Positions 7,878-52,455 of a stretch of DNA of 64,000 bases are shown in pieces. The DNA comes from an uncultured Poribacteria bacterium (lineage in GTDB: Bacteria > Poribacteria > WGA-4E > WGA-3G). Every line of letters starts with the position of its first letter. The first letter of the stretch is position 1. A program made the position numbers and the translations under genes. The notes beneath the pieces were generated by a model, which searched no databases, was not told the origin of the DNA, and saw only the letters and a list, made by a program, of their open reading frames with translations. The DNA is taken from assembly GCA_951813545.1 (NCBI GenBank), contig OX638352.1, forward strand, positions 4,736,835 through 4,800,834, given 5' to 3'.

Positions 7878-8107
7878 ACCTGAATCCTTTCTTGTGATAT
7901 TGACAGCAATATACCAAAGGCGGCCGATTAAGTCAACAGGTTCCTGCTTTATACCGGAGCCGTTCAGTTTTTAGTTTTTTGTCGGTTATACGGGGAACTA
8001 AGTTGAAATCGGAGTGTTTTGCTTGGGTGTTTCTGCGGATTTCCGCCCCTCTTACAGAACGCGGAGGGCGAGGTTCCAAACCTCGTCAGCGGCAAGCAAG
8101 TGCCGAG

Positions 8108-9318: not shown

Positions 9319-9435
9319 TATAGTAAAGCCCATAATTATCTATCCATCAACCAAAGGGCGAGGATACAATCCTCGCCAGCGGTGGTGAGGGTTTTTTGTT
9401 TCCCAAATGTTAACTTATTTTCAGACTTTACTATA
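9319..9435. mobile_element. MITE-like ~117-bp element, copy A
   Basis: 11-bp terminal inverted repeats (TATAGTAAAG ... CTTTACTATA). Internal perfect 9-bp GC hairpin GGCGAGGAT-ACA-ATCCTCGCC followed by a T-run. It is near-identical to the copy at 44346..44463. Confidence 0.45.
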
Positions 9436-26139: not shown

Positions 26140-26175
26140 AAAAAAGGCGGGGTTAGAAACCCCGCCAGTAAAAAA
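26140..26175 (-). terminator. Rho-independent terminator after the Gfo/Idh gene at 26209..27294
   Basis: GGCGGGGTT-AGA-AACCCCGCC hairpin (26146..26166), flanked on the minus strand by TTTTTTC. Confidence 0.6.
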
Positions 26176-26208: not shown

Positions 26209-27294
26209 CTAAATCTCAGGCACTCTCACCGCAATCTCTTTACCGGCTGCATGCGAACGGAAAATACCGTCCATAATCACGTTCGTGAGAAGCACACCCT
26301 CCGGCGGTATTGGGGACGGAGCATCCGCTTTAACCGCTTCACGGAACGCTGTCATCTGGGCTGCCCAGTTATCTTCTTGTGGGAATCCTGAGAACTGGAT
26401 CGTCGTCATCCCTTCCGGTGGGTTTGGTTCCGCTGTTAATCCCTCGGATTCGACAAACTTTTTGAGATCACCATCATACGCATCGGCATAGACAACCGGT
26501 CCATTCAATGAGAAACCCGCTTTCGTCCCAAGATGGAAGTTGCCACCGAGGGAGTCCTGATGCACTGCCCAAGAGATTTTGAACACCATCACACCACCAT
26601 TTTCAAACCGCACCCACGCCGCACCGAACTCCTCAACATCCATGATACCACGGAACCTCGGATCCTGCTGCGAGATGTAATCCTCAGTGATAGCGGAGAC
26701 ACGCACTGGTTTTGGATACCCCATCGCATACAGCGAAGCATGCATATTATAGACACCGATATCGACGGTTGCACCAGCACCTGCTGTCTTCTTATAGATG
26801 AACGTATGTCCTGGGTTCCCGCGCCGCCTGCACCCTGCAGATTCAGAGTAGTAGATATCGCCGAATAACCCGGCATCAAACGCCTTTCTTATGAATTGGA
26901 GTCTCGGGCTAAATGTCGGATTGAGACCGATTTGTAAGATTTTGCCCGATGCTTTCGCCGCTCGGGTCATCGCGGTCGCATCTGGAAGTGTCGCCGCCAT
27001 CGGTTTTTCACAGAGGACGTGTTTACCGGCGTTCAATGCTGCCACTGTCGGTCGCCGATGCCCCTGATTGTAAGTGCAGACACTCACTGCATCAAGTTCG
27101 TCCATTTCGAGCATCTTGTTGTAGCTTGAAAAAGCGTTCTGTTTCGGGACACCCCACTCTTTAGCGGCTTGATTTGCCTTACTTTTGATGATGTCACAGA
27201 CCGCAATGATCTCAAAACCGCCTACTTTCTCGTAGGTGCTCTGGTGCGCACGTGAAATGCCACCTGTACCAATAATACCAACCTTGACAGTCAT
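26209..27294 (-). CDS. Gfo/Idh/MocA-family NAD(P)-dependent oxidoreductase
   Basis: N-terminal Rossmann VGIIGTGGISRAH; 361 aa. Confidence 0.85.
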   Translation of the reverse strand: MTVKVGIIGTGGISRAHQSTYEKVGGFEIIAVCDIIKSKANQAAKEWGVPKQNAFSSYNKMLEMDELDAVSVCTYNQGHRRPTVAALNAGKHVLCEKPMAATLPDATAMTRAAKASGKILQIGLNPTFSPRLQFIRKAFDAGLFGDIYYSESAGCRRRGNPGHTFIYKKTAGAGATVDIGVYNMHASLYAMGYPKPVRVSAITEDYISQQDPRFRGIMDVEEFGAAWVRFENGGVMVFKISWAVHQDSLGGNFHLGTKAGFSLNGPVVYADAYDGDLKKFVESEGLTAEPNPPEGMTTIQFSGFPQEDNWAAQMTAFREAVKADAPSPIPPEGVLLTNVIMDGIFRSHAAGKEIAVRVPEI

Positions 27295-35186: not shown

Positions 35187-35390
35187 ACACAATCAGGAAC
35201 GTGATTCTGAAACTTAGGGCTGCTGGGGAAATAAATTAATTTGACTTCAATTAAGGAATCGGGTATAATAACTGAGTTAGGGATATAGACAATTCTTCGT
35301 TTTTTGGAAAAATTATGGAATTCAGTCTGTGAATGCTCTAATAGTATGAGACGAGAGCATTCACTTTGCCGATTAACAAGAGGAAATTAC

Positions 35391-36197
35391 GTGAAAAAAT
35401 TGATAATCATTGCCATGTTTATAATGTGCTACTTCGCTTTGCCGAGCATCGGTATATCTGCTCCGATGGGAGAGGTGGCAATCTTTACAGAGCAAGCCGG
35501 ATGGATGGGGCAGCCTACTGCCGTTGAGGAAGGGAAGGAAATGCTAAACATGCTCAAAACCCCGGCGGATGTTGTGGTATTAACCGATAAAGAGATTGGC
35601 AAATGGGCAGAGGACCACACCGATAATGGCGTTTCTGATATTATCGTAACATTCGGTTGGTTCCCGACAACCTTATATACCCCCGGTAATGTTGATCCTG
35701 ACGGTTCAATCGCTGAAGAATTCCTTGAAGGCGGAAATGTTTTCCTTAATACTGCGGATTATATTTTCTACGTCACACAAGGCGGCGGTGCCAACGGTGA
35801 ACAGGGCTTGAAGAATATGATGGATATCAACGCCGATATGTGGTCCGATGGTACAGCTATCAAACCCACTAATGATGGTAAGAAGTATACCCCTACCCTT
35901 AAAGCCTTTACCTCAGCGCGGACTTTCAAGGAAAAACAGATTGTTGATCCTTGGGAAGTTGAGGTAGTTTTTGGTGATAATGGGGCAGGATTCTTGGATC
36001 CCGCGATTGTCCATGATACCGAAACCGACGGTCGTATCGGAATTGCCTATCAAGTACCAGGTGACGATGGGCTCCCACGGGGCGAACTTTTCACCGAAAT
36101 GATTGATAACTACCTGTTTGAAGTGCTCGGTCCCCAATCAGTTGACCCAAATCAAAAGGTTGCTACGACCTGGGGACATCTTAAATCAAGTTTTTAA
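35391..36197 (+). CDS. Secreted protein of unknown family, paralog 2 of 3
   Basis: Start refined to GTG 35391, after an AAGAGGA RBS. Signal peptide KKLIIIAMFIMCYFALPSIGISA. Long stretches shared with 36303..37124 (FGWFPTTLYTPGN, ADYIFYVT(Q/E)GGGANGE, NADMW(S/G)DGTAI, KYTPTL). Confidence 0.5.
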   Translation: MKKLIIIAMFIMCYFALPSIGISAPMGEVAIFTEQAGWMGQPTAVEEGKEMLNMLKTPADVVVLTDKEIGKWAEDHTDNGVSDIIVTFGWFPTTLYTPGNVDPDGSIAEEFLEGGNVFLNTADYIFYVTQGGGANGEQGLKNMMDINADMWSDGTAIKPTNDGKKYTPTLKAFTSARTFKEKQIVDPWEVEVVFGDNGAGFLDPAIVHDTETDGRIGIAYQVPGDDGLPRGELFTEMIDNYLFEVLGPQSVDPNQKVATTWGHLKSSF

Positions 36198-36302
36198 CCC
36201 ACTATTGTTGGAAACCACTATAGTAACTCAGGTTCTATAACCTATTGCTCCAGCAATATCTTTAGTATAGTTGGAGCAAACTCAAAAAGAAAGGAAAAAC
36301 TA

Positions 36303-37124
36303 ATGACACGCAGTGTATTAACACTATTTGTAGTTCTGTTAATGGTTACATGTACTATTTCAAGTTGGGCTTTAGGTGATGTCGCTATCTTCAGCGAAAA
36401 TACTGGCTGGATTTCCAAAGAAAACGCGGATATTCAACGCGCTATAGTCTTTGACAACCTTAAAGGCACTGTTGGTTCCGTTGGTGACATTGTTTATGCA
36501 ACCGATGCAGAAATCGGGCCGTGGGCAGAAGAACGCATTGATGACGGCAAGGCAGATATCCTCATCATTTTTGGTTGGTTCCCAACAACCCTCTATACCC
36601 CGGGAAACTCGCAGGTAGATGACTCCATCGCCGAACGATTCCTCTACGGTGGAAATATCATCCTCAATTGCGCCGATTATATCTTCTACGTTACTGAAGG
36701 TGGTGGTGCTAATGGTGAAAACGGTTTGAAGACCATCATCAACATCAACGCCGATATGTGGGGCGACGGGACAGCGATTACGCCGACAGCCGATGGCGAA
36801 AAGTATACGCCAACACTTGAAGCGTATACTTCCAATAGACCTTTCAAAAGTGAACAGATCGTTGATCCCTGGAGCGTTGAAGCCGCTTTCGGTGATAACG
36901 GTGCTGGATTCTTTGACCCTGGTATTATCAAATTGAACGATAGTAGCGGACGGGTCGGTATCTGCATGCAAGAAGGAAATAACGGTGAATTGCCACGCGG
37001 ACAGATACTTATCGAAATGATTGATTTCATTTCACAACAACCTGATGTGGCTGGTGCGACGACACCTGTTGAACCAACTGGGAAAGCAGCTGTTATTTGG
37101 GGCAATATCAAAGCCACACGTTAG
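36303..37124 (+). CDS. Secreted protein of unknown family, paralog 3 of 3
   Basis: Signal peptide. About 55-60% identical by eye to paralog 2. Conserved C-terminus VIWGNIKATR. Confidence 0.5.
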   Translation: MTRSVLTLFVVLLMVTCTISSWALGDVAIFSENTGWISKENADIQRAIVFDNLKGTVGSVGDIVYATDAEIGPWAEERIDDGKADILIIFGWFPTTLYTPGNSQVDDSIAERFLYGGNIILNCADYIFYVTEGGGANGENGLKTIININADMWGDGTAITPTADGEKYTPTLEAYTSNRPFKSEQIVDPWSVEAAFGDNGAGFFDPGIIKLNDSSGRVGICMQEGNNGELPRGQILIEMIDFISQQPDVAGATTPVEPTGKAAVIWGNIKATR

Positions 37125-37436
37125 TCTGACCGTAAAGCCAAAACATTCCGCTCTTATGTTCTCGCCTTTAAGGTGCGAATATAAGAGCGTTTTTTATGGA
37201 TGAATAGCATCTGCCTATAGTGCTCAAGAATGGCAAATCAAGTCGGGAATCGGAGTTCCCTCCTACGGGTGTGTAAATATTTTGGCAGCGTTCCCTTATA
37301 GAGCGGTTTTACGCCGACAGCCCCTCGTCAACGTACATAGCACTCCGCTGGAGTGCTATGTAAACAAACCGGTCCTATCAAAAAAATTAAGGAAACCGTG
37401 ACAAAAACTTTACACACTTCCCTCCTACAGAGGTTC

Positions 37437-37489: not shown

Positions 37490-37963
37490 TTGAAACAGAT
37501 TATCACACACGCAGACCCAGACCTCGATGCTATTGTCAGCGCATGGATCGCTCAAGATTTTCTTTTCCGACAGACCGCATCAGAGGTACTGTTTGTGAGT
37601 CGCAAAGTACCCGAAAGGCTTATGTTACATGCCGACTGTGTGGTAGATGTTGGGAACACATATTCTCCTGAGAATTACCGGTTCGATCACAAGCCTCCGG
37701 CATTTCGGAATAGAAATGGCACCTGTGCAACTCGGCTTATCTGGGAATATCTGATCAATATTGGTGTTGATGTCGCGTATCTTGAGCCTTTGGTACAGAT
37801 AACATATCAAGGGGATACACACCGGAATTCGGAGGCACTTAAACAGAGCCGAATCGATGGACCACATGCCGAATTAGCCAGACTCAAAGCAGAATATAAA
37901 GAGACGACAGAGGTCTATCGAGAGATGGTTCTCTGGCTGAGGAGTTATACAAAAAACTTATGA
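37490..37963 (+). CDS. Small hypothetical protein with DHH-phosphoesterase-like N-terminal motifs
   Basis: 157 aa. HADPDLDAIVSAW resembles DHH motif I. VVDVG and FDHK are possible motifs II/III. It is far shorter than canonical DHH proteins. TTG start with a GGAGG RBS. Its stop overlaps the next gene start. Confidence 0.4.
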   Translation: MKQIITHADPDLDAIVSAWIAQDFLFRQTASEVLFVSRKVPERLMLHADCVVDVGNTYSPENYRFDHKPPAFRNRNGTCATRLIWEYLINIGVDVAYLEPLVQITYQGDTHRNSEALKQSRIDGPHAELARLKAEYKETTEVYREMVLWLRSYTKNL

Positions 37964-39270: not shown

Positions 39271-39888
39271 TGGGTTTCTTCTTTTTAGCCAAAGATCGAG
39301 AGCCTGAAACGAAGTGAAAGGGTTTTTGCTTGGGGGTTTCTTCAGATCTACGTAAAAGAATGTTAAATCCCAAACTATACTAACCGAACCACAAGGAATA
39401 ATTAAGAATAGCGGGTTTCTTTTTTTTACCCAAAGATCGTGAGCCTGAAACGAAGTGGAGGGCGGATCTACGTAAAAGAACGTTAAATCCCAAACCATAC
39501 TAACCGAACCGCAAGGAACAATTAAGAATAGCGGGTTTCTTCTTTTTAGCCAAAGATCGCGAGCCTGAAACGAAGTGGAGGGCGGATCTACGTAAAAGAA
39601 CGTTAAATCCCAAACCATACTAACCGAACCGCAAGGAACAATTAAGAATAGCGGGTTTCTTCTTTTTAGCCAAAGATCGCGAGCCTGAAACGAAGTGGAG
39701 GGCGGATCTACGTAAAAGAACGTTAAATCCCAAACCATACTAACCGAACCGCAAGGAATAATTAAGAATAGCGGGTTTCTTCTTTTTAGCCAAAGATCGC
39801 GAGCCTGAAACGAAGTGGAGGGCGGATCTACGTAAAAGAACGTTAAATCCCAAACTATACTAACCGAACCGCAAGGAATAATTAAAAT
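39269..39888. repeat. Tandem repeat, 5 units of ~120 bp (first unit 141 bp), filling the whole PQQ-M16 intergenic region
   Basis: Unit AGCGGGTTTCTTCTTTTTAGCCAAAGATCGCGAGCCTGAAACGAAGTGGAGGGCGGATCTACGTAAAAGAACGTTAAATCCCAAACCATACTAACCGAACCGCAAGGAACAATTAAGAAT. Unit boundaries at 39410, 39530, 39650 and 39770. Units 3 and 4 are identical. The array ends 1 nt before the ATG at 39889. Confidence 0.9.
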
Positions 39889-42882
39889 ATGGAAACAACT
39901 CGGACACCAGAGGTAAACTTACGTCCCGGCGAACAACTTCACGGCTTTGAGGTGAAAGCCGTTACACCGATCGACGAATTGCGAGCAGTGACAATTGAAT
40001 TGGCACACCAACATAGCGGTGCCCGCCTGCTACATCTCTATACAAACGATACGGAAAATCTCTTCTCCATTAATTTCCCGACCCCGCCATCAGACGATAC
40101 CGGCGTACCCCATATTCTTGAACATGCTGTTTTGGCAGGCTCACACAAATTTCCGGTTAAAGAGCCCTTCTTTGAAATGATTAAAATGAGCATGGCAACA
40201 TTTATTAACGCCATGACAAGTGCCGATTTTACATGCTATCCGGTATCAAGCAACGTAAAAAAAGACCTTTTCAACTTGGCAGAAGTTTACTTTGACGCGG
40301 TCTTCCATCCACTACTGACCGAAAATACTTTCAAGCGTGAAGGACATCATCTCGCACCCGTCGATCCGGATGACCCTACAGGCGATTTAAAGATAACGGG
40401 TATCGTCTATAATGAGATGAAAGGCGCATTCTCAGATCCTGAAGCTCGGTTATATCGATCAATGACATGTCAACTCCTTCCAGATACGCTTTACGCATGT
40501 GAATCCGGCGGCGATCCAGATGCCATTCCGGATTTGACCTACGCGCAGCTCAAAGGATTTCATGAAACCTATTATCACCCAAGCAACGGCTATTTCGTTC
40601 TGTACGGGGACATTCCGACGAGCGACTATCTCACGTTCCTCGCCGATAAGTTAGATAAAATCCCAAAGAATGCTGCGAGTGCCTCTCTACGACCGCTAAG
40701 CCCGGAGGTCACACACCAACCGAAGTGGGATGCGCCACGGGCTGTAACGGATACCTACCCTGTCGGCGCAGATGAAGCACTCACAGAAAAAACATATATG
40801 ATGCTCAGTTGGTACATCGGAGAAGCGACCAAACCGGAAGCAGTTGTTTTAGGACGCATTTTGAGCCTTATACTGCTTGGCAATGAAGCCGCACCGCTCC
40901 GTAAAGCGATAATCGATTCCAAACTCGGTGCAGACCTCATCTATTCCGGTGCCAGTTCCATCGGACCCGCAGCTACTTTTCACGTTTCCCTCAAAGGGAG
41001 CGAAGTCGATCGCGTTGAAGCCTTCACACAACTCGTCACCGATACCCTAACAGCGATTGCGAATTCAGAGATTAATAACGAAAAGGTGGAAGCAGCGTTC
41101 CAACAAGCGACATACTATTACCAAGAAGTCGCTTCAATGTTCCCGCTCCGCATGCTCTACCGTGTCATTGAAGGCTGGATATATGAAAAAGATTCGGACA
41201 CCTTCCTAAAGATGGGAAAAACGCTGACTGATGTTCGTCAGCAGTGGCTGGAAAATCCATCAATTTTCAACGACTTCATCCGCGAGCATCTCATTGAGAA
41301 TCCACATCGTCTGACAAGTGTGTTGTCTCCTGATCAGGACATGCAGGCGAAAATGGATGCTGAACTCGCCGAACGGATGAAAGAGACACGGACACAACTC
41401 ACTGATGAAGAGGTACGGCAAATCGCCGCTGATGCTGCGGAACTCGAACGCCTCAACGGCGTCCCCAATTCGCCGGAAGCACTCGCAAATCTGCCACAAC
41501 TCCAAGTCAGCGATCTTCCCGATAAACCGAAACATTTTCCGAGAACAGTCGAAAATGTCGGTGGTCGGGATCTGCTCCGCAGCGATGTTTTTGCCAATGG
41601 TGTTAACTACCTTGTGCTCAACTTCAATTTACACGGGTTACCACAGCACCTCTGGACCTATCTACCCAGATATGCTGACGCTATTAGCAAACTCGGTGCC
41701 GCTGATATGAGTTATGAAGAGATGGCACAGCGGACATCTGCCGTCACCGGTGGTATTGGATGCTCACCGTGGTTTTCTACACACACACTCGATGCCAATC
41801 GTTCCATGCAGAGTATATCCTTTCACCTCAAAGCACTCGATGGGAAAATGGATGCCGCGCTCGATGTCTTGCACGATTTACTGTTTGCTGTGAACCCACG
41901 CGATACGGAACGCCTCCGGGACGTACTGGTTCAAGCGGTTGCAGAATATCAGACAGAAATGATCCACGACGGCTCAAGTACTGCGGTTCATCACGCTTCA
42001 CGTGGACTTTCGTCGAATGCGCATCTCGCCGAAATCATCTATGGTCTACCCCAACTCCGCAACAGCGAAACGCTCTTCAACGATTTTGACGAACTTCATA
42101 CCGACCTTATGGGTCATATAGAAGGAGTTCGCGATTTCCTGCTAACCCGTGAACGGGTGACCGCCAGCTTCACCGGTTCGGATACCGCTTTTGAAACGAC
42201 GCGAACCAAACTCGGTGAGTGGCTTGACGCGATGCGGAACGAGCCTGTTATTTCAGAACCGATTGCGTTCCAGCAGTTTGATACACCACCGAGAGAGGGA
42301 TTAGCCGGTCCCATTCAGATTGCGCATTGTGCGCATGTAATGCCGGCACCGCACTACTCCGATCCGGATTCAACGCTGCTGACGATCGGGGCGCATCTCA
42401 TTCGACTGGATTACATACTGAGTGAAATCCGCTTTAAAGGCAACGCTTATGGTGCCAGATTCAGCTATAGTCCTTATGACGCAGTCCTGTGTCAATCCTC
42501 GTATCGCGACCCACACGTCGCACGCACGATCAACGTCTTCGAGCAAACCGTTGATTACGTTAAACAGGTGGAATGGACACAAACAGACATAGACCGCGCG
42601 ATTATTGCTACGGCAAAAGATGGTGAGAAACCGATGCGTCCAGGTTTAGCTGCGAGAGAGGCACTGAGTCAACATCTTGTGGGGCAGACGCGCGAGATGC
42701 GAGAGGAACGCTACGCGCAACTCCGACGTGCCACCCCTGCTGAGGTGAAACGCGCGCTCCTTCAACTTTTAGAGGGAAACCGAGATAAAGCCGCGGTGTG
42801 TGCCGTTTCCAGTCGTGAAAAACTGGAAGCCGCAAACAGTGAATTAGCACAACCGCTTGTCATTGAGGATATTTTATCCTAA
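39889..42882 (+). CDS. M16C-family zinc metallopeptidase (PreP/pitrilysin-like)
   Basis: 997 aa. Inverted zinc motif HILEHAVLAGS (HxxEH) and downstream NEMKG glutamate. Length is typical of M16C. Confidence 0.8.
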   Translation: METTRTPEVNLRPGEQLHGFEVKAVTPIDELRAVTIELAHQHSGARLLHLYTNDTENLFSINFPTPPSDDTGVPHILEHAVLAGSHKFPVKEPFFEMIKMSMATFINAMTSADFTCYPVSSNVKKDLFNLAEVYFDAVFHPLLTENTFKREGHHLAPVDPDDPTGDLKITGIVYNEMKGAFSDPEARLYRSMTCQLLPDTLYACESGGDPDAIPDLTYAQLKGFHETYYHPSNGYFVLYGDIPTSDYLTFLADKLDKIPKNAASASLRPLSPEVTHQPKWDAPRAVTDTYPVGADEALTEKTYMMLSWYIGEATKPEAVVLGRILSLILLGNEAAPLRKAIIDSKLGADLIYSGASSIGPAATFHVSLKGSEVDRVEAFTQLVTDTLTAIANSEINNEKVEAAFQQATYYYQEVASMFPLRMLYRVIEGWIYEKDSDTFLKMGKTLTDVRQQWLENPSIFNDFIREHLIENPHRLTSVLSPDQDMQAKMDAELAERMKETRTQLTDEEVRQIAADAAELERLNGVPNSPEALANLPQLQVSDLPDKPKHFPRTVENVGGRDLLRSDVFANGVNYLVLNFNLHGLPQHLWTYLPRYADAISKLGAADMSYEEMAQRTSAVTGGIGCSPWFSTHTLDANRSMQSISFHLKALDGKMDAALDVLHDLLFAVNPRDTERLRDVLVQAVAEYQTEMIHDGSSTAVHHASRGLSSNAHLAEIIYGLPQLRNSETLFNDFDELHTDLMGHIEGVRDFLLTRERVTASFTGSDTAFETTRTKLGEWLDAMRNEPVISEPIAFQQFDTPPREGLAGPIQIAHCAHVMPAPHYSDPDSTLLTIGAHLIRLDYILSEIRFKGNAYGARFSYSPYDAVLCQSSYRDPHVARTINVFEQTVDYVKQVEWTQTDIDRAIIATAKDGEKPMRPGLAAREALSQHLVGQTREMREERYAQLRRATPAEVKRALLQLLEGNRDKAAVCAVSSREKLEAANSELAQPLVIEDILS

Positions 42883-44345: not shown

Positions 44346-44463
44346 TATAGTAAAACCTACAATTAATTAGACATTGTAGAAGGGCGAGGATACAATCCTC
44401 GCCAGCGGTGGTGCGGTGTTTTGTGTTTTCCAAAGTGCCCTCTTATTTTCGGGTTTTACTATA
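44346..44463. mobile_element. MITE-like ~118-bp element, copy B
   Basis: Perfect 11-bp TIRs TATAGTAAAAC (44346..44356) and GTTTTACTATA (44453..44463). Same internal hairpin GGCGAGGATACAATCCTCGCC and following AGCGGTGGTG..GTTTT tract as copy A. It is inserted 1 nt after the stop codon at 44342..44344. Confidence 0.45.
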
Positions 44464-44469
44464 GTTATC

Positions 44470-44556
44470 AGTCGTCAGTTGTCAGTTATCAGTTACAAGA
44501 GAACTTTGTTAAACGAAAATCTCTTAACTGAAGACTGACAACTGACAGCCAATTAT
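44470..44556. repeat. Long imperfect inverted repeat (ACTGAC-type motifs) between convergent genes
   Basis: Arms TCAGTCGTCAGTTGTCAGTTATCAGTTA and TAACTGAAGACTGACAACTGACAG around a ~35-nt loop. A related CTGACTACTGATAACTGACTGCTGATA tract lies at 24773..24800. Confidence 0.4.
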
Positions 44557-45862: not shown

Positions 45863-47092
45863 TTACTCTCCAATTACGACACCGTATTCACCGACAACTG
45901 CGCCTTTGTGTCCGGTCTGGTAGTGTAGGTGTCTTTCACCGACGATAGGTTGTGTGCTTTGTACTTCTACTGTGCCGCGAACTTTCCCCATCGCTCCTTC
46001 ATCCATATCAACACAGCAGAACGGTTTAATTTGGCGATGCACTTGCTGCTTAATGTCCCCTTGTCGGTTGCGGACGATAACGTTGACAAAAGCATCTGCT
46101 TCTCCAACGTTAAGAAATCGGAACCAGTCCCAGGCACCCCCGGCAATTTCAGGGAAAAAGAGCCGGAGCCCAACTTGTCCTCCCTCAACCGATGCACCGG
46201 GTAGATCGATAATGGCTGTCCCACTATGCATGTGTCGTTCCGCGACAACCGGTTGATCGCTGCGTACCTCTACGGAGGATTTCACTTTAATGTCATCCAT
46301 AGGTGGTGTCCAGCACTCAAAAGGTCTCAGTTGATCGCGTTTTTTTGTCCACGTTGCTTGCGCATTGTCATCTTTACGTGCGATCATCGTTACTTCTGCA
46401 TCTTCTCTCCCGACGTTGACGATTACAACCCAATCTTGCCATGCAGGTCCGACTTCTGGCAAAAAGAGTGTGCGCGGCGCATCCGAAATCAACTGCCCAA
46501 ATTGCCCAACGGATGTCTTCCCTCCCTGATAGTGGAGATGGCGCTCTCCCACAATCGGTTGTGAACTTTGCATCTCAACCGTGCCGGTGACGTTCCCCAT
46601 AACACCTTCGTTGAGATCCCAACAGCAGAGGGGCTCAATAACGTGGTGTCGTTGCCTGATTACATCGCCGTTTCTGTTTCGGACGGTAATGTTGACGTGC
46701 GCATCCGCTTCACCGACGTTTAGGACCCGAAACCAATCGTGGGCACCGGAGACCAGTTCCGGAAAGAAGAGCCGCTGCCCGACTGTTCCATATTCCTCCG
46801 CTGCACCAATGAAATCAAGCACGTTCGTGTCCTTGTGCATGTGCCGTTCCGCCACAATCGGTTGATCTGCAGTGAACTGCATTGAGGAGTTCTCTTTAAT
46901 CTCTTCGACGTTCGGTATCCAGGACTCGAAGGAGCTTATTGTTTTCTCCGCAGACCAAGTCGGTTGTCCGTTACGGGCATGTCTCGCTATCGCAGTTACA
47001 CGGGTATCTTCAGGTCCCACATTCGTAACTTGGACCCAGTCTTGCCATTGGGGTCCCACTTCTGGAAAATAAAGGGTTGTTGCTCCTGGCAT
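45863..47092 (-). CDS. Hypothetical protein made of four tandem ~100-aa repeats of an unrecognised domain
   Basis: Each repeat carries LF(F/L)PE(V/L/I)..G..DW..(V/F)LNVGE.DA.V, (E/K)P(L/F)(C/E)C(W/V)D and Q(P)(I/V)(V)(G/A)ERH(L/M)H motifs. No signal peptide. 4-bp gap to the downstream AhpD-like gene. Confidence 0.5.
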   Translation of the reverse strand: MPGATTLYFPEVGPQWQDWVQVTNVGPEDTRVTAIARHARNGQPTWSAEKTISSFESWIPNVEEIKENSSMQFTADQPIVAERHMHKDTNVLDFIGAAEEYGTVGQRLFFPELVSGAHDWFRVLNVGEADAHVNITVRNRNGDVIRQRHHVIEPLCCWDLNEGVMGNVTGTVEMQSSQPIVGERHLHYQGGKTSVGQFGQLISDAPRTLFLPEVGPAWQDWVVIVNVGREDAEVTMIARKDDNAQATWTKKRDQLRPFECWTPPMDDIKVKSSVEVRSDQPVVAERHMHSGTAIIDLPGASVEGGQVGLRLFFPEIAGGAWDWFRFLNVGEADAFVNVIVRNRQGDIKQQVHRQIKPFCCVDMDEGAMGKVRGTVEVQSTQPIVGERHLHYQTGHKGAVVGEYGVVIGE

Positions 47093-47299
47093 TGGTGCCT
47101 CCTATTTAAAGCCTTTTTTATACCGATATATACTCGCAACGTGTGATTACGAGAAAATTAAGAACGTCATAATGAATATTGCTGTTACTATTTTAACTTG
47201 CACTTATTTATATTTTCCACTATAATTTCGGTCAATGCCATTTAGTTCACACCCAGCCATTCAGTTATCAGTTTTCTACCCGTTTTGTGTCGGGTGTCG

Positions 47300-47580
47300 T
47301 GGTTTGGGGATCCCTTCTACAGAAGGGATCGGGAATTGGAGTTCCTTCCTACAGAAGAGTCGGGAATCGGAGTTCCCTCCTACAGAAGAGTCGGGAATCG
47401 GAGTTCCCTCCTACAGAAGGGATCGGGAATTGGAGTTCCTTCCTACAGAAGAGTCGGGAATCGGAGTTCCCTCCTACAGAAGAGTCGGGAATCGGAGTTC
47501 CTTCCTACAGAAGAGTCGGGAATCGGAGTTCCCTCCTACAGAAGAGTCGGGAATCGGAGTTCCCTCCTACAGAAGAGATG
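47300..47580. repeat. Tandem array of about nine 31-bp repeats in a divergent promoter region
   Basis: Unit GGGAATCGGAGTTCCCTCCTACAGAAGAGTC, with variants GGGAATTGGAGTTCCTTCCTACAGAAGGGATC. Each unit has an internal dyad GGGAA-N6-TTCCC. A solo copy lies at 37241..37266. Confidence 0.85.
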
Positions 47581-47605
47581 GCTTTCATAATTTGAGGAGA
47601 AAACA

Positions 47606-47893
47606 ATGGCTGCGAAAAAACTTTCAGACGCTGAAATTCAGGAAAACCTTGAACAACTCAACGGTTGGACAGTGGAAGACGGTAAACTGCACAAGGAATA
47701 TCAGTTTGACACCTTTGTTACAGCCTTCGGTTTTATGACACAACTCGCCCTAATCGCGGAATCCATGAATCACCACCCCGAATGGTTTAACGTCTATAAC
47801 CGTGTGACAATTGATTTGATGACACACGATGCAGGTGGCATCAGTGAATTGGATTTTCAATGGGCAAAGCACGCGGATTCGATTAGTGGATAA
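47606..47893 (+). CDS. Pterin-4a-carbinolamine dehydratase (PCD/DCoH)
   Basis: 95 aa. EYQFDTFVTAFGFMTQLALIAESMNHHPEW is the classical PCD core. Confidence 0.85.
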   Translation: MAAKKLSDAEIQENLEQLNGWTVEDGKLHKEYQFDTFVTAFGFMTQLALIAESMNHHPEWFNVYNRVTIDLMTHDAGGISELDFQWAKHADSISG

Positions 47894-49988: not shown

Positions 49989-50005
49989 CCCTACATCCCT
50001 CCGTT

Positions 50006-50026
50006 GGCGGGGTTTTTAACCCCGCC
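50006..50026. terminator. GC hairpin between convergent genes; weak terminator
   Basis: GGCGGGGTT-TTT-AACCCCGCC. The stem is identical to the terminator at 26146..26166. There is no strong T-run on either side. Confidence 0.4.
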
Positions 50027-50091
50027 ATTCCAAGAACACCTTAATCGAAAACTAAAATATGTAGAGCGAGGTCTCCGTGCCTCGCGACTTC

Positions 50092-52386: not shown

Positions 52387-52455
52387 CTGGAAGTCGGGCT
52401 TCGGAAATCCTTTCTACAGGAAAACTGAATCCTCCGAAGCAGCAGACAAAAACAC

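Follow-up and report, generated by a model that had tools for sequence, protein, structure and literature searches.

The DNA analysed here is a stretch of 64,000 nt from an uncultured Poribacteria bacterium (assembly GCA_951813545.1, contig OX638352.1, positions 4,736,835 to 4,800,834 of the forward strand), which we call the window. Upstream of its gene for pterin-4a-carbinolamine dehydratase (PCD), a 31-nt sequence is repeated in tandem. We consider it very probable that the units of this array are copies of a GTAG-type repetitive extragenic palindrome (REP), clustered head to tail, and that the array derives from a Poribacteria system of REPs and REP-associated tyrosine transposases (RAYTs). 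REP/RAYT systems are well studied in Proteobacteria, and the Poribacteria are an uncultivated, mostly sponge-associated phylum. Our literature search returned no paper linking Poribacteria with REP, RAYT or REPIN (the inverted REP doublet). A first-pass annotation, made from the letters of the window, had offered two readings of the array: a regulator binding site that was amplified, or a small dispersed repeat family. The second reading agrees with our results, as the unit is a GTAG-type REP which is common to many Poribacteria and linked to RAYT genes. The first is unsupported for reasons given below.

Unit anatomy and copy number at the PCD locus

The array consists of eight full units and one degenerate leading unit (coordinates of all features are given in Table 1), which agrees with the count of about nine in the first-pass annotation. 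When the 31-mer was searched with up to 3 mismatches, 8 matches were obtained, all inside 47331..47579, and 0 were expected from 100 shuffles. The units match the 31-mer on the plus strand only, and the GTAG head is on the minus strand. Tandem Repeats Finder reported the array at 47311..47577 with a period of 31, 8.5 copies and 93% matches, together with a higher-order period of 94 nt (31+31+32) at 96%. The variant types follow each other in the order T-C-C'-T-C-M-C-C. The leading unit has a different palindrome (GGGGATCCC) and the same CTACAGAAG tail as the full units. With this unit included, the array (47306..47579) covers 274 nt of the intergenic region (513 nt, 47093..47605), on the side of the PCD gene. 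A CRISPR (clustered regularly interspaced short palindromic repeats) array was rejected because the units abut without spacers, as the first-pass annotation had already concluded.

Judged by its layout, the unit is a GTAG-type REP. On the minus strand, it reads TCTTCTGTAG-GA-GGGAA-CTCCGA-TTCCC-GAC (also written TTCTGTAG-GA-GGGAA-CTCCGA-TTCCC-GAC). An unpaired GTAG head and two extra bases (GA) precede a stem of 5 bp (GGGAA/TTCCC) with a loop of 6 nt (CTCCGA), and three nucleotides (GAC) form the tail. Every array unit starts with (TTCT)GTAGGA on this strand. The dyad GGGAA-N6-TTCCC, which had been ascribed to each copy, is perfect in five of the eight full units; the other three (47331, 47425 and 47487) carry TTCCT. 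The definition of GTAG REPs requires a GTAG head that stays unpaired beside a stem-loop, with stems of 5-13 bp and loops of 2-20 nt; in the families GTAG-1 and GTAG-2, head and stem are separated by two additional "GW" bases, and a 3-bp tail is conserved (PMC3733652). The arrangement GTAG-GA-stem5-loop6-stem5-GAC is the same as in GTAG-1 and GTAG-2 of Pseudomonas, Xanthomonas and Thauera (Di Nocera et al. 2013, PMC3733652), and a 5-bp stem is also found in the Thauera GTAG REPs. Differences to that survey are the host phylum, as Poribacteria are unmentioned there, the loop CTCCGA and the stems GGGAA or GCGAT.

In related genomes, the array motif (motif A) has a partner, motif B (GTAGGAGCGATCTCCGAATCGCGAC), which is usually inverted relative to A at a distance of 10-24 nt. 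Motif B has the same head as the array units; a single GTGG head variant occurs (locus L092). The reverse complement of A is GTAGGA-GGGAA-CTCCGA-TTCCC-GAC, and B is GTAGGA-GCGAT-CTCCGA-ATCGC-GAC. Head, loop and tail are equal, and the four differences amount to two compensatory pair changes in the 5-bp stem. We counted the stems of every GTRGRA-N5-loop-N5 site in the comparison loci and the window. Fully complementary stems were GGGAA/TTCCC (157), GCGAT/ATCGC (81), GGGAT/ATCCC (3) and GTGAT/ATCAC (2), and mixed arms occurred in about one copy each. As the dyad covaries between two subfamilies, it likely behaves as a hairpin, which counts against a reading as operator. Alternative complementary stem residues are also known from sub-families of GTAG REPs (PMC3733652). 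The B-A doublet folds as one long hairpin (z = -5.1 as DNA and -4.5 as RNA).

The copy number of the array was compared in ten contigs from other assemblies that encode an identical 95-aa PCD protein. Their PCD upstream regions have in common a promoter-like block TTAACTTGCAYTTATTTATATTTTCCACTAYAATTTCGGTCAATGCCATTTAGTTCACACC and a ribosome-binding site (RBS) block ATGGCTTTCAYAATTYGAGGAG. Five contigs (L121, L122, L123, L125 and L129) have no repeat and an unrelated 52-nt filler instead. L124 and L127 contain the leading unit and one further unit with a 2-nt deletion, and L126 has three units. In L128, a SPAdes contig, seven units stand in a different but internally consistent order. L130, an independent MEGAHIT assembly, has eight units in the variant order of the window, plus one single-nucleotide polymorphism. 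As 0, 1, 3, 7 or 8 units accompany an identical PCD protein, the array is real, is dispensable for the PCD gene and is a variable number tandem repeat (VNTR) that differs between close relatives; very probably, it is not an operator array. It steps by one to three units. In this, it resembles bacterial VNTR or contingency loci in 5' regions, in which the number of short units varies between promoter and start codon. It differs from contingency loci as the unit is a genome-wide repeat of mobile type and not a locus-specific microsatellite, and as the 31-nt unit lies outside coding sequence.

Three plus-strand open reading frames (ORFs; 47235..47738, 47285..47590 and 47287..47595) cross the array, in which all three frames are open. 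They correspond to 101-167 aa with periodic peptide repeats. We rejected them as genes for two reasons: a difference of one 31-nt unit between alleles breaks the reading frame, 31 not being divisible by 3, and the repeat-less allele is without them.

A REP family of Poribacteria and its association with RAYT genes

We scanned one genome per species (GTDB) with the query GGGAATYGGAGTTCCYTCCTAC, and the resulting counts are lower bounds. The 22-nt core was found exactly in at least 120 stretches of 8 kb from at least 42 species-level genomes. Among the matches listed, 40 of the 42 genomes are titled Candidatus or uncultured Poribacteria, two are untitled metagenome-assembled genomes (MAGs), and a single chromosome contains up to 13 stretches with the core. 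A 25-nt core is identical over at least 42 species-level genomes, the proteins of which have diverged to 55-90% identity; such exact conservation is a further difference to GTAG-1/2 (PMC3733652). A phage origin was rejected, with one match in 2.9 million viral contigs.

By a crude ORF call, which assigns 82% of the bases to ORFs and 18% to non-ORF sequence, 154 of 169 A copies (91%) and 104 of 110 B copies (95%) are extragenic. Relative to the neighbouring genes, A copies show no orientation bias (++ 36, -- 42, divergent 27 and convergent 25). The 147 exact A copies comprise 64 in the arrangement B-N(about 18)-A, 24 in the arrangement A-N(about 16)-B, 43 solo copies and 14 in A-only arrays. 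Thus, 88 of the 147 are in doublets with the inverted pairing of REPINs or bacterial interspersed mosaic elements (BIMEs). The doublets are embedded in longer composite palindromes, about 135-140 nt in length, whose outer arms are conserved. In arrays elsewhere, the period is 35, 37-40, 46, 47, 69, 92 or 119 nt, so that the range with the window is 31 to 119 bp. As the spacers are locally uniform, these arrays likely arose by local tandem duplication after insertion rather than by repeated independent insertions.

To find RAYT genes, all stop-to-stop ORFs of the loci were compared with IS608 TnpA, E. coli YafM and a Pseudomonas RAYT-like sequence. These sequences served as bait only, and hits were checked independently. 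Three loci were found, among them L092. The L092 protein scored 125.6 bits against NCBIfam NF047646, "REP-associated tyrosine transposase" (cut-off 80), and matched E. coli TnpA-REP (PDB 4ER8) with an E-value of 1.2e-7 (phmmer). The HUH and Tyr motifs align, with HVH opposite HMH and YCYENPV opposite YIYINPV. Three B-A doublets with a period of 119-120 nt are located on each side of the gene. The YafM-like RAYTs of L116 and L025 were rejected as cognates as they have no direct A/B flanks.

A protein search with the L092 RAYT gave 108 relatives, some of which carry the source names "REP element-mobilizing transposase RayT" or "transposase [Candidatus Poribacteria]". Three of these relatives, from other chromosomes, were analysed with their flanks, and all three have exact A/B copies next to them: L138 (contig of 5,542,969 bp), L139 (1,193,507 bp) and L140 (6,037,525 bp). 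In L138, two A copies precede the gene, and one inverted A copy lies 4 nt past the stop codon. In L139, four A/B doublets are upstream and about 25 head-to-tail A-type units with a 37-40-nt period are downstream. In L140, four head-to-tail A units with a 35-nt period are upstream and three with a 92-nt period are downstream; the 92-nt unit takes in the last ~60 nt of the RAYT ORF. With L092, REPs flank the RAYT gene in four related genomes. A more distant clade, P0167 (60% identical to the L092 RAYT; L141-L143), is not flanked by A/B motifs; it was rejected as cognate and presumably serves another REP type. The largest head-to-tail A-type arrays that we saw adjoin RAYT genes (2013..2996 in L139; 1261..1390 and 1971..2206 in L140).

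The Poribacteria family shares further traits with known systems. GTAG REPs form homo- or heterodimers (head-head or tail-tail) and clusters in which units recur in tandem together with flanking DNA, and they flank RAYT genes; head-to-tail dimers are rare in most genomes (PMC3733652). Singletons, head-head and tail-tail heterodimers, clusters, tandem units and RAYT flanking were likewise observed here. In P. fluorescens SBW25, inverted doublets form a long hairpin, copies are extragenic, and REPs and REPINs occur in tandem clusters of which the largest are beside RAYT genes (Bertels & Rainey 2011, PMC3116915). The same holds for doublets, tandem clusters and extragenic copies in Poribacteria. 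In contrast to SBW25, the doublets are A+B heterodimers with compensatory stem changes, and the window holds singlets and a singlet array but no doublet; SBW25 singlets were interpreted as remnants (PMC3116915).

The E. coli REP/BIME system with TnpA-REP (RayT/YafM; 4ER8) has a homologous flanking transposase. As in E. coli BIMEs, there are two REP types in alternating orientation (compare the Y and Z types). In E. coli, REPs are insertion targets for other elements, which may also hold here. The array of the window is unidirectional, unlike the alternating BIME arrays. E. coli REPs are longer, at about 35 nt, and have longer bulged stems.

Proposed origin of the array and alternative explanations

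At the level of sequence, the element has all the features of a REP; it is selfish or structural DNA of a kind already known. Judging from other REP/RAYT systems, the hairpin with its GTAG head would, as single-stranded DNA, be the substrate of a REP-associated tyrosine (HUH/Y1) transposase. The RAYT would spread REPs into intergenic DNA, chiefly as REPINs, with the doublet as the mobile unit. At the PCD gene, one REP would have landed in the variable part of the leader. Slipped-strand mispairing or unequal recombination between units may then have amplified it locally by one to three units per step, which would result in a VNTR of 0 to 8 units among closely related populations. Both the PCD locus and the 37241 locus show presence and absence at orthologous sites. 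Much less probably, the RAYT itself produces the unidirectional spacer-less arrays, which also occur beside RAYT genes, in a rolling-circle-like mode or by reiterated cleavage and joining. If true, RAYT-made arrays would be a mode of REP amplification so far undescribed.

Several points weigh against the origin from a REP/RAYT system. A single unit is a weak hairpin (about -3.3 kcal/mol as DNA), no better than shuffles. Motif B has 0 matches in the window with up to 3 mismatches, so there is no REPIN doublet in it. Long homomeric head-to-tail arrays without flanking DNA are called rare for REPs in most genomes (PMC3733652). No RAYT of the L092 clade was found on the 5,746,478-bp contig that carries the 157-aa protein of the window, in a word-indexed search of 90% protein clusters with one longest contig per member. 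Mobilisation by a RAYT and expansion and contraction by slippage are steps that we infer, and so are the promoter at 47198..47226 and, with it, the location in the 5' leader. The window itself has no RAYT ORF.

The candidate promoter was not listed by the consensus scan because its -35 hexamer matches in 3/6 positions only. In the repeat-less lineage, the promoter-like block is conserved (TTGCAT...TACAAT). The promoter/terminator scan of the array region gave zero terminators and only weak promoter hits. If the candidate promoter is used, the array would be within the 5' leader of the PCD mRNA, and PCD would probably be affected, if at all, through side effects on this leader. A functional role of such a leader would be a secondary one on top of the REP identity and not an alternative to it. 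The array would have been exapted as a copy-number-tunable leader, in which hairpins and CCUCC sequences complementary to the Shine-Dalgarno (SD) sequence set mRNA stability or translation, and the variation from 0 to 8 units would be a selected expression dial similar to a contingency locus. The position between the conserved promoter-like block and the RBS and the variation of unit number between populations fit this idea. The minimum free energy and centroid folds predict that AGGAG of the SD sequence pairs with CUCCU in the last unit, and CCUCG at the equivalent position of the repeat-less lineage is predicted to pair with UGAGG. However, the fold energy is no better than that of shuffled sequences (z = +0.94 for the leader and +0.77 for the last two units with the RBS). 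The element occurs elsewhere in either orientation to genes and also between convergent genes, and there is no Rfam match (Rfam 15 at gathering threshold, 0 matches in the whole window). We regard a selected leader function as improbable. Folding of 47230..47620 on both strands (z = +0.94 and -0.42) gave no sign of structured RNA, and a tRNA/tmRNA search gave nothing.

An operator array, with the 31-bp unit as a dyad site of a transcription factor that was amplified between divergent promoters and controls PCD and/or the divergent operon, is very unlikely. It would explain the dyad inside the units, the 31-bp period near three helical turns, and the copies or part-copies (37418..37431 and 52392..52421) that closely precede promoter-like sites. 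The part-copy at 37418, however, is accounted for by a duplication around a 151-nt insert. In other genomes, the motif follows no rule of orientation or position, as convergent contexts (25) are about as frequent as divergent ones (27) and co-directional contexts number 36 and 42, and the periods vary from array to array. Alleles with 0 to 8 units share the promoter block as well as an identical PCD protein, and RAYT transposase genes have the motif on their flanks. Together with the stem covariation, this leaves the regulator site proposed in the first-pass annotation without support. About as little probability is given to a fragment of a miniature inverted-repeat transposable element (MITE) or an end derived from an insertion sequence, moved by a transposase other than RAYT, with the RAYT link being incidental. 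In other genomes, A and B do lie inside the ~135-140-nt palindromic composites, with outer arms TTATAGTG...CACTATAA or CTAGTG...CACTAG, and in the window the solo copy contains an insert of 151 nt that has short inverted repeats at its ends. Against this stand the A/B copies that directly flank RAYT genes on both sides in four genomes, and the GTAG head, hairpin and 3-nt tail of the REP architecture. No other transposase was found recurrently, though only RAYT-like ORFs were searched for.

An array that was created or inflated by the assembler is the least credible explanation, with hardly any probability left to it. Near-identical 31-mer tandems are hard to assemble, and the unit number differs between assemblies; the first-pass annotation had named absence of the motif elsewhere together with hypervariable copy number as the mark of a slippage artefact. 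The copy number is indeed hypervariable between populations, but the motif is abundant elsewhere, which speaks against an artefact. L130 repeats the 8-unit order with its variant units, which argues for real VNTR behaviour, and L128 has a consistent 7-unit order. The variant units (types T, C and M, and the one of 32 nt) give the structure fixed points, and comparable arrays occur in many long-read chromosomes of other Poribacteria.

The analysis defines a Poribacteria REP family with stem sub-types A and B, doublet and array architectures, and a cognate RAYT clade. For annotation, such arrays should not be taken for operators, CRISPR-like arrays or, by way of spurious ORFs, genes. They can serve as polymorphic markers for strain typing and are likely break points in short-read MAG assemblies.

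Further copies and other repeats in the window

Table 1 Features of the array locus, further REP-related sequences of the window and the RAYT gene of locus L092 (positions refer to the window unless a contig is given)
Feature	Position	Strand	Remarks
Degenerate long REP variant ...GAAATCGGAG-TGTTTTGCTTGGGTGTTTC-...CCTCTTACAGAAC	8001..8060	-	compare long variant in L135/L136
Solo REP copy AGTCGGGAATCGGAGTTCCCTCCTAC	37241..37266	-	exact 26-nt match to array units
Insert of 151 nt	37267..37417	none	9-nt terminal inverted repeats GTGTGTAAA / TTTACACAC
Duplicated REP 3' part TTCCCTCCTACAGA	37418..37431	-	directly 5' of a promoter-like site, perfect TTGACA-N17-TATAAT, of the operon starting at 37490
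Divergent 409-aa gene	45863..47092	-	internally repeated sequence, without Pfam hit; bounds the intergenic region
Candidate sigma-70 promoter TTGCAC-N17-TATAAT	47198..47226	+	read by eye from the sequence
Degenerate leading REP-like unit GGGGATCCCTTCTACAGAAGGGATC	47306..47330	-	in all repeat-bearing alleles
Eight full head-to-tail REP units	47331..47579	-	31 nt each, one of 32 nt; plus-strand reading GGGAATCGGAGTTCCCTCCTACAGAAGAGTC
PCD Shine-Dalgarno sequence GAGGAG	47593..47598		
PCD gene	47606..47893	+	Pfam Pterin_4a, 1.8e-34
Degenerate REP-like copy AGTCGGGCTTCGGAAATCCTTTCTACAGGA	52392..52421	-	77% identical to the 26-mer; ends with CTACAGGAA
RAYT ORF of L092	OZ244829.1, 3848..4354	-	Pfam Y1_Tnp, 6e-10

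In total, the window contains one array, one solo copy and two to three degenerate copies. The exact 26-nt match that had been reported 10 kb from the array is present; a part-copy close to it had been overlooked. Of the sites annotated as TACAGAA cores, the one at 8053 is correct and falls within the degenerate long variant; the one placed at 52420..52440 is off, as the copy really lies at 52392..52421 and has the heptamer CTACAGG.

The site orthologous to the solo copy is empty in L134, in which the orthologous protein is 91% identical, and contains a long REP variant in L135 and L136. The 151-nt insert separates the solo REP from the duplicated REP 3' part and is flanked by duplicated TTCCCTCCTAC; it is not present in L135/L136. 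Because of the duplication around the insert, the part-copy stands beside a promoter-like site. The inner palindrome of the insert, CATAGCACTCC-GCT-GGAGTGCTATG, recurs in L017 and L091. Possibly, the insert is a small mobile element with REPs as its target. A repeated MITE family was rejected, as only the ends and the inner palindrome recur in the loci compared.

The long REP variant has the additional sequence TGTTTT(T)GCTTGGGYGTTTC, which separates the CGGAG loop from the 3' arm. Degenerate copies of it are located in the window at 8001..8060 and 39324..39352, and further copies in L005, L135 and L136.

A second tandem array spans 39345..39889 (120 bp x 4.6 copies, 97% identity) and ends exactly at the start codon of an M16C peptidase gene (39889). 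Each 120-bp unit holds the RBS-like AAGGAA, which suggests that the whole intergenic region before this gene was amplified. Among relatives, this spacer holds one unit in L135, is 24 nt long without any unit in L134, and is 160 nt of unrelated sequence in L137.

Another dispersed hairpin repeat, AAGGGCGAGGATACAATCCTCGCCAGCGGTGGTG, is found at 9354..9396, 44380..44422 and 8064..8106 and also in L069 and L078; two full copies are 93% identical across 43 nt. This repeat could represent terminators or a second family similar to REPs, and the YafM-like RAYTs of L116 and L025 might belong to it. A GC-rich hairpin of terminator-like look, GGCGGGGTTAGAAACCCCGCC, occurs at 26143..26167 and, inverted, at 50005..50029 (92% complementary).

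Heptamer runs at 44463..44547 (AGTTATC x 4.7 and AACTGAC x 3.1) form an inverted repeat with 85% complementarity between convergent genes. Runs of CAGTCAG/CAGTTAT often adjoin REP copies in other Poribacteria loci, and runs of this type are also located at 47263..47280, immediately upstream of the array. Two adjacent paralogous genes at 35304..37124 (297 and 273 aa, no Pfam hit) have a 108-nt stretch in common at 70% identity, and a direct repeat of 300 nt with 80% identity is located at 26209/27343.

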